A DNA stretch of 64,000 bases from Eledone cirrhosa (Eukaryota). Under the pieces are notes generated by a model. The model was given only the letters and a program-made list of their open reading frames with translations. It searched no databases and was not told where the DNA came from. Both the position numbers and the translations under genes were made by a program. Where the stretch lies: positions 116,870,001-116,934,000 of the forward strand of contig OZ024741.1 of NCBI GenBank assembly GCA_964016885.1. The letters run 5' to 3'. Each line of letters begins with the position of its first letter. Position 1 is the stretch's first letter. Shown here one piece after another: positions 6,896 through 58,583 of this stretch.

Positions 6896-7086
6896 TAGGA
6901 AAATGTATGACCCCGACGGCAGAGCTCAAGCCGTTTCGACAGCTATTTCTGGACTAAATTCTAATTTAGTCCAGAAATAGCCGTCGAAACAGCTTGAGCT
7001 CTGCCGTCGGGGTCATACATTTTCCTATTACCCACTCTACTATCCTAAGTATTGAGTACTCTGGTGCGTTATGGTCCATCTGGTTC
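6896..7086 (+). mobile_element. Family A short fold-back element in (TA)n with a hammerhead 3' half (Penelope-like pLTR fragment inferred)
   Basis: Palindrome 6896-7028 plus tail ACCCACTCTACTA.CCTAAGTATTGAGTACT.TGGTGCGTTATGGTCCA...CTTCGT; other copies at 8751, 18431, 29086 and 58388. Confidence 0.75.
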
Positions 7087-7727
7087 CTTACCACAACTCC
7101 TTCGTTATATATATATATATATACATATATACATATATATATATATATTATATAAGTATATATACATATGTATAGATAGATGTATTATATATACATATAA
7201 CTATATATATATATATAATGCGATGAAATACCAATGATCGTTGGCAAATCACTGATGAGAGACTCATTTTATAACATGTAATCCATGTGCAACCATGCAG
7301 TATTCTTCTCCCCATATTTTTCATATATATATATATATATATATATATATATATATATATATATATATATATATATATATATATATGTGTCTGTATACAC
7401 ACACACACACATATATACATGTGTGTGCATATATGTATGTTCGTGTGTTTATGTGTGTATGTATGTATGTATGTATGTATGTGTGTGTGTATGTATGTAT
7501 GTGTGTATGTATGTGTGTATGTATGTGTGTGTGTGTGTGTGTGTGTGAGTGTGTATGTATGTATGTATGTATGTATGTATGTATGTATGTATGTATGTAT
7601 GTATGTGTGTGTGTTTATGTATCTATACCACGCGGCTACTTGCGGTAAATATTCAATATTTTCTGTATTTAGTTTACTTTAGCTCAATTGTTCCAGTTTG
7701 TTAAGTTCACACAGGTACATACTCATA

Positions 7728-7820
7728 CATAAACACACATAGCCACACATAAACACACATAGCCATACATAAACACACATAGCCACACATAAACACACAT
7801 AGCCACACATAAACACACAT
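7728..7820. repeat. 20-bp tandem repeat ACATAAACACACATAGCCAC
   Basis: About 4.5 copies read directly. Confidence 0.9.
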
Positions 7821-8625
7821 ATATAAATGTTTGGTTTATGGATTCGTGCAATAAAAACACTAAATCTGCATTCAATGAAGAACTCACATATTGCTTATAG
7901 TGTTAACACTTTTGTGAGAAGCCAGGTTGAATTATTCAATGTTTCAACCCGGCCTCTCAAAAAATATTTAGAAATAAACGCTCACAATTATATATATATA
8001 TATATATGTGTGTGTGTGTGTGTGTGTGTGTGTGTATTATATATATATATATATATATTCCTATTTCCTATATATATATATATATATATATATATTATAT
8101 TATATTATATATTATATAATTATATAGTTTATTATATATTATATGTGTTACTTTTAATCATTTCATTACTTCATGTATATTAGATATACGTGTTATTATT
8201 ATTTTTATTCCTATTATGCTTATTTATATTTAAACTCTTAATAAGGTTTAATGTGTGCTGTTAATGATGGATATGTGTATTGATGTAGATGTATATGTGC
8301 GTACGTGTGCATACATATATACATATGTATATTGTGCCTTTTAATTTTAATTTTTAATTTTAATTTTAATATTGTTACAAGTATATTATATTATATTATA
8401 TAGTATTATATATAATTCCCGCTCTATATAACCACCTTTGTTTAGCTCTAGGTTTTTTTTTTGCTTTGGACTATATTTGTAATATGGTTCATAATGTTAT
8501 ACACCTCCTTAGTGATTTTTATTATATATTTTTACCCATAATCTTGCAATACTTTAGTGTATGTACACTCCATATTCTTCGGAGTTTTCGGCTTGTATTG
8601 GCCGATAGTACTTCTTGTGGTTTTG

Positions 8626-8670
8626 ATTGCCCTGATGAGTCCTTAATAGGACGAAACATTGTTGGCTAAT
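8626..8670 (+). ncRNA. Minimal type-I hammerhead ribozyme
   Basis: ATTGCC-CTGATGA-GTCCT taat AGGAC-GAAA-C att G-TT-GGC(t)AAT: intact core, 5-bp stem II, stem I with one bulge, GUU triplet. Confidence 0.75.
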
Positions 8671-54330: not shown

Positions 54331-54502
54331 GCGCATATACACACACATGCACCCATGTATATATACATATACATACATATGTACATGTGTATATACATCT
54401 TATGAGTTCTTCCGCCCTTTGTCAGGTTTTGTTTTTTTTCCTGCAGGGTGTCCAAAATCACCCTCCTCACCATATATATATATATATATATATATATATA
54501 TA

Positions 54503-54940
54503 CGGTGGCTGCCAACTCGTTTTCGAGTATGGCCACTACCTTATATCCATGCAGGAGAACCCCTACCGATGTGCTGAACGAGTGTGGCTTTTTAGTCCAG
54601 CCAGCGACTTGAAAACTCTGGTACAAACACTACACTTGTGACAATTATTGACACCTAGTGCTGGGCCCATGGTACCATGTGACCCAAGGTATCGTGTGAG
54701 ATCACTACTCGACCTGCATACCCTTCCACAAACATTACATGTCGTCGTCTGATGAACACTTATAGCTCCACAGGTGCCTGCTTCCCTGTTATTGTGCACT
54801 CTCAGGTGACTCTTTAGACCTGCCATGCTCAGACAAACCCTATTACAGGTCAGGCCGTCTGTCAGTGCCTTCGGGAAGGCCAACATGGATTCCTTTCCGG
54901 ACATCTCTTTTTAGTGTCGCGTGCCTTCTTCTTGTTTCCT
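54503..54940 (-). mobile_element. 3' end of an RTE LINE encoding tandem C2H2 zinc fingers; shorter copy at 54972-55113
   Basis: ORF 54563..54904: [48 protein letters not shown]; same 3' hairpin GGCCATACTCGAAAACGAGTTGGCAGCCACC. Confidence 0.75.
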
Positions 54941-57900
54941 CATATACATACATACATACATACATACATACATACATACATACATACATACATGGTGGCT
55001 GCCAACTCGTTTTCGAGTACGGCCACTACTTTATATCCATGTAGGAGAACCCTTACCGATGCGCTGAACGAGTGTGACTTTTTAGTCCAGCCAGCGACTT
55101 GAAAACTCTGGTACATACATACATACATACATACATACATACATACATACATACATACATACATACATACATACATACATACATACAAATATACTCGAAA
55201 TTAAGAGAAAGAGATAATACATACATATATGTATACATACACGAATTCCTCTTTAGATTACGAATGAACATGAGTTTTGCACCAAGAAAGTTCCCTTTCG
55301 TGATACAAGCCCAACAATTACCCCTGCATATCGGTCTCTCCTCTTAACACCACCGATGTTGTCCAAAGGCAAAGACCGATATAACGTGGCACCAGTGAAG
55401 TCGCAAATCACTTTGTTCCAACTGGAGCTATGTGAAAAAAATGTATATACATATATATATATATATATATATATATATATATATATATATATATATATAT
55501 ATATGCATAATTATCTACATAGAAAATAAGATAATATTGGGACGTGAATATTTAAGGACAGAGCGAGAAAGGTCGTGATTCAACCTGCTGAAAGTAGTTG
55601 ATATCTGACGATGATGATCAATAAGAAAAGATACGGATAAAACCCACCCTCAGAACGTATGAGGGGATGGACATATAAATAGGGTGGATGGCTTCAATTT
55701 TGTCTTCAGCTAGTGACTCATAGCGTATACGACGTTTGTTTGGTGGTTATGACAATTTCTAAAGTGAACTAGGACACGTGACCAACGTGACATTTTACAT
55801 GGCTGACGTCAGCCCCTTGTTAATAGCCATTTCAGAAATAGAGACGCTGTGTACTAAGTGAAACGCACTCGAGGTGATGACAGGAGAAATACTTAAACAG
55901 GACTATGGAGTATACAACTTACCACCTGGCGAAGTATACTATATCAATCGGTATTTCTATATAGACTTAAGGTTCACATAAGCTCCTATGGTTTTGTTTG
56001 GGACTAAATTTCAGTGGGAACTAGAATTTGGGACTAAATTACAGAAAAAGTAGACAATTTCAGAAAAAAGATGATCGGAAAGGAGATTCTTTAAAATGGA
56101 GGTGGAAAATAACAATATTATTTTACTTGCGTATTGCAGCTTGATAAATCAGACTTGTTAGACCTTAATGAGTCGGTCATAATTAGTTCTGCCATTGGTT
56201 TTGTAATTCATCATTCTTTTTATATTTTGTCTATGGTATTTTCAAAATTCCGAGTAAATGCTCCGTAGTGTTCGTTACGGTTATCTATGCTTATATTTCA
56301 AATCTCGCCGATGCCATCTTTGCCTGTCATTCTTTTGAGGTCGATAAATAAAGTAAAAATTCCGGGGGTGAGGTGAATGGGGGGAATTTTTAGAGCATTA
56401 GACGTGATATTTTGTGGTATCACTTTTAGCCTTTTTGTAATTACCTATGCACTTACTATTGCCAAGTTCTACCGGCCTTTGCTTTTTCCGCGGATAACAT
56501 TGCCGGTCTTCCATAAACAACATTACCCTTACCTACTCATTGACGGCGAGGAACCTTCCAAGTGAGAAAAAAGAGGTGTGTACCAGATGGAAATTGGTCA
56601 ACAGAGACATAGAAATACAGCTCTTCCGAGAAAAATTATGCCTATCATTTCAGTATTTCAGAGTGCCTAACCACGAAAGAATTCGAGAATTATTTTTCGT
56701 TAAAATTGATAAACTAAAGTTCGATAAAGCGAGCTAACTAGAATTAATTCATTCCTTAGTGAGATAAGCTGTGAAATCATTAAAGCATCGGAGTAAATTA
56801 CTTGGAGTATTTGTTCCATCACTCTCCGTTCTGAGTTCAAATCTCACTGCGGTCAGCTTTGCTTTTAATACTTTATTCTTTCAGGATCAATGAATATAAT
56901 ACCGGTTGAAGGTTGTGGATTGGCAGAATTACTAGAGCTTTAAATGGGATATCTTGCAGCATCCATTTTGGCTCTGTGTGTTCTGAGTTCAAATCCCACC
57001 TATCACCGGATAAAATGGTGATATGACATGAGTGGGGGTTTCTATAATTAAAATTCCCACGGACCTCCTTTATGAAGCATCACCAATGAAAGGTTGGCTA
57101 AATTTACGCAAGTTTGAGCCGTAATAACAACATTCCAATCCAATCCAGGTTCTTCTCACTCCTATTGGAGGAAGCCCTCCGTGGTTGATCTCCACTGCTT
57201 TCTGTTTGGTTTTGGTCATGTCAGGTGTAGCGGTACACAACACGCTTTGCCAGCTGCGGGTTGGTGAGGCTGGATGGCCGTTGACTCTGAGGAACTTTTC
57301 CGCCATTTTAACTGCTCTTTAACCCTTTAAAATGTTTCCAGTTTCTCGTAAAAAAAGTGAATCACTGTAGAGAGAATTGTTGAACTCGTATTCCTTAACT
57401 GACATCATATTTTTGGCTAAGATTCTTAATGTTCAATGTTGCAATCCAAACAGCTTTAAATATAAAGGGCGGTGTTGGGAAACTAATTCATGGTTCCCAA
57501 TGGACTATAAATAAGACAACAGGAAAACCCCTTTAGGTATTTATAGATGAAAGCAGAGTCTTTAGTGGGTTCCCAGCAACGGAATGGCTTACGAAATGTT
57601 CCTTATTGATAAAATCAGAAACCAGTTTAATTTTATGAATGCAAATACAAAGAAGGAAGAGAAGGAGAGGTAAACGAGTGAGAAGGGGAGAGGAAAACAA
57701 GCTACGAAAGAGAAAAAAATGAACATTTTTATAAATAGTATATAAAAGCTGGAAAAAAGCAAAGAGTAAACAGCAAACAGTGACCTTAAGATGTTTGTTA
57801 ACCACAGTTACAGGATTATAGCAAAGTACTTGTTTACCTTAACATGGGCCATAAAGCATAAACCCATTAGCTCGTTGAAAAAAAAAACAAAAAAAAAAAA

Positions 57901-58387
57901 CAACCTTTCAAAAACTAAACCACAGATACATCCTACCCACCCACACACAGAAAATGAATACAGGAATATCAACAAAAACAATAAACAAACAAATCAGAAA
58001 AAAAGGAAATATGACAGAGTATTGACACGTTTATGTTACATATTTTGTCCTTTTTATCACGTTTCAGACCAAGATGAACTGACTGCGTGCAGTATTACGA
58101 CTAAAGCACCTGTGATTGACCGAGTTCAAGTTACTTGCAATGAAATGATATCACCGCTATTGCTATTGTTTTACTTGAGAAACAATACAACTACGTTAAT
58201 TGTTCATACAGGGCTGATTTGGGTTTTCATATTCATTATATGGGTAGACTTATATTGAGAAATGTAATTCGTAATACTTTGAATACTTTTAAAAGCATTA
58301 TTGAAAAACAATTATTGAAGTGATAATTTATATATTACATTAATTTATATATGCAATGTACTTTGTGTGTATGCGTGAGTATATATA

Positions 58388-58583
58388 TAGGAACGAGTAG
58401 GACCCCGACGGCTGAGCTCAAGCTGTTTCGACGGCTAATTCTGGACTAAGAATTAGCCGTCGAAACGGCTTGAGCTCAGCCGTCGGGGTCATACTTGTTC
58501 CTATTACCCACTCTACTACCCTAAGTATTGAGTACTTTGGTGCGTTATGGTCCATCTGGTTCCTTACCACATTTCCTTCGTTA
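58388..58583 (+). mobile_element. Family A fold-back element
   Basis: Inverted arms 58388-58504 around CTGGACTAA, plus the family tail; (TA)n on both sides. Confidence 0.75.

Follow-up and report, generated by a model that had tools for sequence, protein, structure and literature searches.

Penelope-like elements (PLEs) have been described with a tail on one end only (PMC8557442, PMC3846280), and in a Poseidon element the tail is delimited by two reverse transcriptase (RT) start sites used in vitro, where nicking and extension involve both strands of the target (PMC11167929). As for the hammerhead ribozymes of PLEs, the available parts of PMC4209133 hold no in vivo evidence of cleavage, and those of PMC11167929 describe no RNA reads that end at the cut and do not find cleavage to be required. 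In the parts available of PMC8557442, PMC3846280, PMC4209133 and PMC11167929, the formation of the inverted structure, the template strand and hammerhead cutting in vivo are stated as open. Here we report on 64,000 nt (the window, i.e. the whole stretch analysed) of the 3.0-Gb genome of Eledone cirrhosa (GenBank assembly GCA_964016885.1, contig OZ024741.1, positions 116,870,001 to 116,934,000 of the forward strand), which hold four fold-back insertions, referred to as family A, at 6898-7105 (+), 18432-18617 (-), 29088-29201 (+) and 58390-58581 (+) (copies 1 to 4). These are almost certainly 5'-truncated insertions of a PLE, and each insertion was very probably made by two priming events.

A parent element with two fixed ends

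At all four sites an inverted arm without a tail and a tailed arm are present with (TA)n on both sides, just as an earlier reading of the sequence alone (the sequence-only reading) had claimed for a short inverted and a long arm; it was also right that the tailless arm stops at TTCC|TAT (4/4 copies) and that the axis differs between copies (4/4). A 37-mer from the arm has 9256+9379 exact matches in the genome (18,635 in total) compared with 0 for a reversed control, and the four copies are thus not due to chance; exact-pattern counts put the family at >20,000 copies. Among the first 30 loci examined several arms continue upstream into common sequence, and at one locus, which ends in (TA)n on both sides, the whole RT/GIY-YIG frame is accompanied by an inverted tailless copy of 1.87 kb. 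Head-to-tail tandem arrays with a period of 3531-3544 nt (unit ≈3.53 kb) were found at three loci, where tandem or partial-tandem units form pseudo-long terminal repeats (pLTRs), and two of the three have uninterrupted open reading frames (ORFs) of 717-719 aa. The arms are colinear with this RT/GIY-YIG-encoding unit, which bears out the Penelope-like origin proposed earlier.

The 717-aa product comes from a single ORF with RT and GIY-YIG endonuclease (EN; motifs FDIESYY, YRDDGL and NVIY...AYIG). Motifs of the Hydra clade of PLEs were also read in it, i.e. HSDKTG (DKT), RLRWRT (R for K), CNCPDRSIC (CxCX5C) and CNLCSEE...LLNKK...CKH, and the insertion preference for (TA)n, a trait of this clade, was found as well; placed by motif, the element would belong with the Hydra clade. 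Pfam and PDB searches with the element's protein gave no match, and the nearest protein-atlas clusters (at 0.96-0.99) are of the animal retroelement type, and some of their members carry HTH_animal, GIY-YIG or RVT_1.

Positions in the element are numbered throughout with the last base of site B as 0. The order in the tandems is 3' untranslated region (UTR), hammerhead, site A (TTCC|TAT), an 80-nt tail, site B (TTCGT|TAT), a 93-nt 5' UTR and ATG; sites A and B both lie inside the tandem-unit junction, 80 nt apart, with TAT after each. In the RNA, TAT follows the junction, as needed for the microhomology with the TA target that the sequence-only reading invoked. Exact 25-mer counts in the genome were 20,982 for A into TA and 20,854 for A reading through into the tail, and 22,102 for B into TA and 310 for B reading through into the 5' UTR. 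We sampled 140 B-anchored loci from four contigs: an adjacent inverted arm was parsed in 94, and 94/94 of these arms end at A; long tailed arms are present in 16/140, and 30/140 were unparsed, ≈12 of which show a damaged inverted arm as judged by eye. A count of head-to-head pairs covering 263 stretches (1.52 Mb) gave 131 pairs, 129 of them A+B, 2 B+B and 0 A+A, and hence an inverted 5'-truncated copy with a tail at one end only in 129/131; the two B+B pairs are probably one duplicated insertion.

We considered and rejected a non-LTR retrozyme: the window copies have half a hammerhead and are head-to-head, and short tandems elsewhere (257-274 nt) are likewise without the 5' half. These short arrays, of 274 nt at L093-L098 (C3:214145056-214149454) and 257 nt at L072-L073, consist of the half hammerhead, the tail, the 5' UTR and the first codons; they have an A end on one side and a B end on the other, or else a fold-back, and their appearance suggests that a small circle was copied over and over or that template jumps recurred. 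A tandem array at L163-L164 (C1:91489170-91491999) passes at its 5' end into ≈50 copies of a 55-nt ORF piece, a pattern of reiterated synthesis, and at L051 (3793-5149, -) the two family-A arms enclose another Hydra-type ORF, which is either nested there or has its ends in common with them.

Arm ends at a predicted promoter start and at the predicted hammerhead cut

The axes, previously termed variable, do differ per copy but are not freely variable: they pile up at a predicted promoter start and at the hammerhead cut. As regards the former, 66 of the 140 tailed arms start between -143 and -128, and the stop rate per base is 0.08-0.24 from -141 to -136 and 0-0.01 at -142 and -143. The A at -137, which we take to be initiator-like, stands within TCAGTC or TTAGTC inside hammerhead loop II, and a TATA-like box (TATTTAAA or TATTCATA) is located 29-31 nt upstream of it, also within loop II. 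A G precedes 29/34 arm stops at -137 compared with 45/201 at other positions; in read-through copies the position before -137 is T (53) or C (19), never G, and 17 of the 29 G's cannot derive from the partner arm. Both arms attain -137 at 2402 junctions in the genome, and among 50 of these that were listed and judged by eye 6 have G on both arms, 26 have T on both and 2 are mixed G/T; in some junctions an untemplated G is present on both arms with 0-6 nt between. Untemplated 5' G has been attributed to cap copying in L1/SVA (PMC3287187). The arms likely end at a capped RNA 5' end, with RNA polymerase II predicted to start at -137 and the G representing the copied cap.

A start at -137, within loop II, would explain the short copies that lack the hammerhead 5' half. 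This half had been described as never present, which is true of the window; longer genomic copies, where the sequence-only reading proposed to look for it, do carry UUGA(G/U)AA or CUGAGAA.

Junctions at -138 to -141, upstream of the start, have T runs of up to ≈17 compared with the template's three. This T-rich class may reflect untemplated A addition, slippage or a second start, and R2 RT is known to add untemplated A's (PMC8857657). The possibility that -141 is another capped start is unsupported, G being present in only 1/24 stops there.

The hammerhead core starts at -180, GAAAC is at -119 and the cut is predicted at -97|-96. Drawn in the pLTR it gives a type I three-way junction in which all 18 pairs are valid. 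In the 73 copies that pass upstream the cores are UUGAGAA (41), UUGAUAA (16), CUGAGAA (12) and other (4); 57/73 have the known U3-A8 swap, a PLE covariant reported in Schistosoma (PMC4209133). Rfam gave 0 matches on the window, which holds half-motifs only. The string GAAAC-GGCT tgagctc AGCC-GTC, said to be contained in the long arm, is exact in copy 4 only; copy 2 has a G-U variant, copy 1 has two changes, and copy 3 is without it because both of its arms start directly after GUC.

A pattern admitting any junction with both arms ending at -94 to ≈-110 is present at 380 places, 100 of which were listed and judged by eye. In 79 of these 100 junctions neither arm goes past the GUC and in 21 it is passed; ≈34 have both arms exact at the GUC plus an untemplated A/T-rich filler, and 20 are blunt, CCCC|GGGG, the class to which copy 3 of the window belongs. 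Uniform ends would put 9/153 allowed end pairs (6%, counted by hand) in the class where neither arm passes the GUC. In the local data 26 arm stops fall at -97 to -95 vs 26 over the 11 positions upstream (rows of the stop-rate table from -90 onward are chance matches of a short pattern). By eye, no lower share of cut-site junctions was seen in the C3/A8 subfamily among the matches listed (18/79 at the cut, 4/21 beyond). With both arms ending at the GUC the RNA would have started at the hammerhead cut, and we infer that the RNAs of the cut-site copies began there, cleaved from read-through transcripts with a complete hammerhead. No report of cap-G or cut-site 5' ends for PLE insertions was found in the literature searched, mostly papers outside subscription.

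The priming model and its alternatives

After 9/94 parsed copies had been dropped as rearranged or mis-parsed, 85 clean copies remained, in which 76 distinct junctions were found, in agreement with the earlier suggestion that the palindrome is made anew per insertion. The tailless arm reaches >3 nt further 5' in 27/85 and the tailed arm in 20/85, while the two are within 3 nt in 38/85; in 9/85 the tailed arm never attains site A and the arms have no common sequence. Junctions show microhomology (53), are blunt (5) or contain filler (27). Moreover, the two arms are correlated: both pass the start in 9 pairs, neither in 117 and one only in 3 (p 2.6e-11), and the subfamily key is the same on both arms in 96/106 pairs vs 0.285 expected if they were independent. 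One-sided stops at the cut number at most 3/94 vs ≈21% expected from independent templates, an expectation that rests on rough inputs (300 of 20,854) from two different patterns. The simplest reading is likely that one RNA is copied from both A and B, and we consider the full model, in which one sense RNA is copied twice with run-off at the capped start or at the hammerhead cut, to be probable.

Specifically, RNA polymerase II would start at the presumed initiator-like A (-137), 29-31 nt past the TATA-like box in loop II, and the mRNA 5' end would consist of the ribozyme 3' half only, followed by A, tail, B and ORF. The protein, probably as a dimer, would nick both (TA)n strands, with one cDNA primed at each of sites A and B; there is an in vitro precedent for an RT that starts at two sites with both strands being extended (PMC11167929). 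Where the 5' A/B pair is used the cDNAs would run off after ≈57 and ≈137 nt, in many cases with an extra G copied from the cap or with A's added; where the RNA has been cut by a complete hammerhead both would run off at the GUC; and where the 3' copy of A/B is used both would be long and could include the ORF. Finally, the cDNA 3' ends would be joined with trimming, 1-6 nt of microhomology or filler, through an end-to-end template jump or host end-joining, which is the least constrained step. Copying one RNA from A and B would need strand displacement. A more inclusive reading, on which our judgement is evenly divided, is that the loop-II promoter leaves the ribozyme at the mRNA 5' end half-formed, that an RT dimer copies the same segment twice with strand displacement and the cDNAs jump onto each other, and that ≈1-2% of insertions derive from RNA cut in the germ line by the U3-A8 hammerhead, which would be the first genomic evidence found of Penelope hammerhead cleavage in vivo.

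Several points weigh against the model. Both the start site and the cleavage are read from DNA junctions alone, and the samples were anchored on exact end patterns and are hence biased to young copies. Of the 29 G's at -137 stops, 10 could derive from the partner arm and 2 are ambiguous, and a cap does not account for the T-rich ends at -138 to -141. Shuffled sequences fold as stably as the hammerhead (z -0.31), and 12/73 cores have a C3/A8 mismatch. About 18/140 B ends join (TA)n or other DNA without an inverted arm. Approximately 4/106 pairs, copy 4 included, join two real subfamily haplotypes, and a single RNA segment was thus not always the template. Arm concordance would also rise without a shared RNA if the subfamilies had been active at different times, and post-insertion deletions inside the palindromes could give some of the asymmetric axes.

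The alternative that survives best is that the two primings occur on two separate RNAs, or in the two end regions (5' and 3') of a single tandem RNA, one per subunit. It accommodates the ≈4/106 copies with two different common keys, among them copy 4, requires no strand displacement, and with cis preference would yield matching variants. By itself it does not explain why arms are both long or both short (9/117/3), and the joint stops at the cut are also unexplained, ≈21% one-sided stops being expected (from the rough inputs mentioned above) vs at most 3/94; we regard it as unlikely.

Snap-back, where one self-primed cDNA folds and copies itself back to site A, was proposed earlier alongside second priming, and it is the latter that fits. 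In its favour, arms of one copy differ by 2.0 vs 3.9 between copies (in 47 nt, 43 copies), 4 variants were found on both arms of one copy only, and microhomology is present at 53/85 junctions. However, a B-primed cDNA that copies itself cannot yield a longer (27/85) or non-overlapping (9/85) tailless arm without later deletion, and snap-back is contradicted on these grounds; the zero-loop junctions with G on both arms, the two-template copies and the match of the 5' ends to sense-RNA features also speak against it. Unless all of the asymmetric copies arose by later deletion it is largely refuted, and we consider it very improbable.

Less probable again is a reading in which ends cluster at -137 and -96 because the RT stalls at hairpins in the RNA, or because palindromes in the genome are preferentially deleted at these points. 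The loop II hairpin does end near -133 and stem III at -98, symmetric axes recur at the short palindromes AATT, TCGA and AGCT, and there are 20 blunt CCCC|GGGG junctions among the 100 listed, but neither G at -138 on both arms, nor the hard edge at -142, nor the ≈34 of 100 listed junctions with both arms exact after the GUC and an untemplated filler would be explained in this way. A palindromic DNA miniature inverted-repeat transposable element (MITE) with fixed ends and internal deletions, suggested by short ORF-less inserts with inverted repeats and TA flanks, can practically be dismissed, since for up to 1.87 kb the arms run colinearly with an RT-encoding unit at its 3' end, the tailed end has no terminal inverted repeat and its 80-nt tail is unpaired, and there is no fixed internal structure (76 distinct junctions in 85), nor is a single ancestral palindromic consensus supported, i.e. 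there was no such ancestor.

The window copies and comparison with known systems

In copy 1 the inverted tailless arm (6898..6959, -) has its 3' end, site A, against (TA)n and its 5' end at ≈-141. Its tailed partner (6955..7105, +), of an older subfamily, spans -150 to 0 and extends 13 nt past the predicted start, with site A at 7025 and the 80-nt tail running to site B; the hammerhead 3' half (6986-7013, +) has the two changes mentioned above and a cut site at 7008|7009. The two arm-to-arm differences are both C/G-to-A changes at CpG. A fifth piece (8753..8824, +), missed in the sequence-only reading, is tail only, joined to TA at the left and cut short at the right. Copy 2 comprises a tailed arm (18432..18567, -; cut site 18529|18528), the tail of which has 0/80 mismatches to the intact tandem unit, and an inverted tailless arm (18562..18617, +) that ends at site A, and together the arms form a perfect 106-nt palindrome. 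The tailless arm of copy 3 (29088..29104, -) is 17 nt, beginning with the base that directly follows the hammerhead GUC and ending at site A, and the tailed arm (29105..29201, +) also starts at the first base after GUC; the axis, 29104|29105, coincides with the predicted scissile bond, and the tail is identical to that of the intact tandem unit. In copy 4 the tailless arm (58390..58449, -; -139 to site A; subfamily key CTACTCG) attains the predicted start and reaches 7 nt further 5' than the tailed arm (58449..58581, +; -132 to 0; key ATACTTG), which has a hammerhead 3' half at 58462-58489 (+) and a cut site at 58484|58485. Since these arms bear different keys, they would come from different templates. 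The palindromes are 128, 106, 34 and 112 nt in copies 1 to 4. Diagnostic variants had been claimed to be common to both arms in three of the copies, which is correct, copy 4 having two different common variants on its arms; those shared within a copy are subfamily traits rather than copy-private changes.

To the right of copy 4 there is an unrelated second fold-back (58662-58914, 81% self-complementary). The same flank is present at another locus (L018) beside a family-A insertion with a different junction, and the two insertions seem to be in the same TA tract of another repeat. Inverted repeats or fold-backs unrelated to family A are located at 2392-3070, 20695-20928, 40494-40768, 45841-48434 and 52263-52311, and a fragment of a diverged, related PLE ORF at 27601-27876 (35% identity to the element's protein, E 3.6e-7). 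The ORFs at 2-605 (+), 11545-13367 (-), 38664-39579 (+) and 60858-61905 (-) are, judging from their motifs, presumably pieces of non-LTR retrotransposons.

The class, layout, tail and U3-A8 core are already known and the element is a new family of a known type; the mechanism matters more than the element. With a young family, >20,000 junctions and intact ORFs, exact predictions can be made: a capped start at -137, a cut at -97|-96, RT starts at A and B, and arms from the same molecule. Such palindromes can also be mis-filed as MITEs.

In L1 twin priming two cDNAs copy different RNA parts. The likeness is that two target-primed cDNAs are joined to give an inversion; here, unlike in L1, both cDNAs would usually copy the same RNA part from two fixed sites. 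Template jumping by R2 resembles our junctions in the untemplated additions, mainly A, before an end-to-end jump (PMC8857657).

The Hydra clade (PMC8557442) shares with the element a single ORF with RT followed by a C-terminal GIY-YIG, DKT, RW(K/R), a CxCX5C linker, CxxC and CxH around the E and N of the EN, (TA)n targeting, a hammerhead near the 3' end, an inverted truncated copy and a one-sided tail. The present element is longer (3.53 kb, with a 1.3-kb 3' UTR, vs mostly <3 kb), as is its tail (80 nt vs 30-40 bp), and its hammerhead differs in the U3-A8 core, the long loop II and the 6-bp stem III, matching none of those listed in PMC8557442 file S2, Hydra-1_Obim included. The minimal PLE hammerheads in PMC4209133 are similarly type I, with a 5-bp stem I, long stem II, palindromic loop 3, the U3-A8 covariant and pairs on opposite strands; a promoter start inside loop II, predicted here, is not reported in the accessible part of that paper. 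For Poseidon PAc of Anolis carolinensis (PMC11167929) two internal RT start sites likewise bound the tail, the target is AT-rich, both target strands are nicked and extended, and the start sites are in the pLTR-ORF junction (here in the 5' UTR). As far as its available text goes, that study did not address the inverted junction, and it has no RNA reads ending at the cut whereas genomic 5' ends at the cut are seen here. Penelopes of Adineta vaga (PMC3846280) have an inverted pLTR, a tail on one end, TATA and initiator-like motifs in the pLTR and palindromes at the inverted junction; the authors favoured self-priming on an antisense template, while our junction counts favour two primings on sense RNA. 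What the present data likely add, as read from the junctions, is the contradiction of snap-back, the ends at a capped start and at the cut site, and the correlated ends and variants of the two arms.

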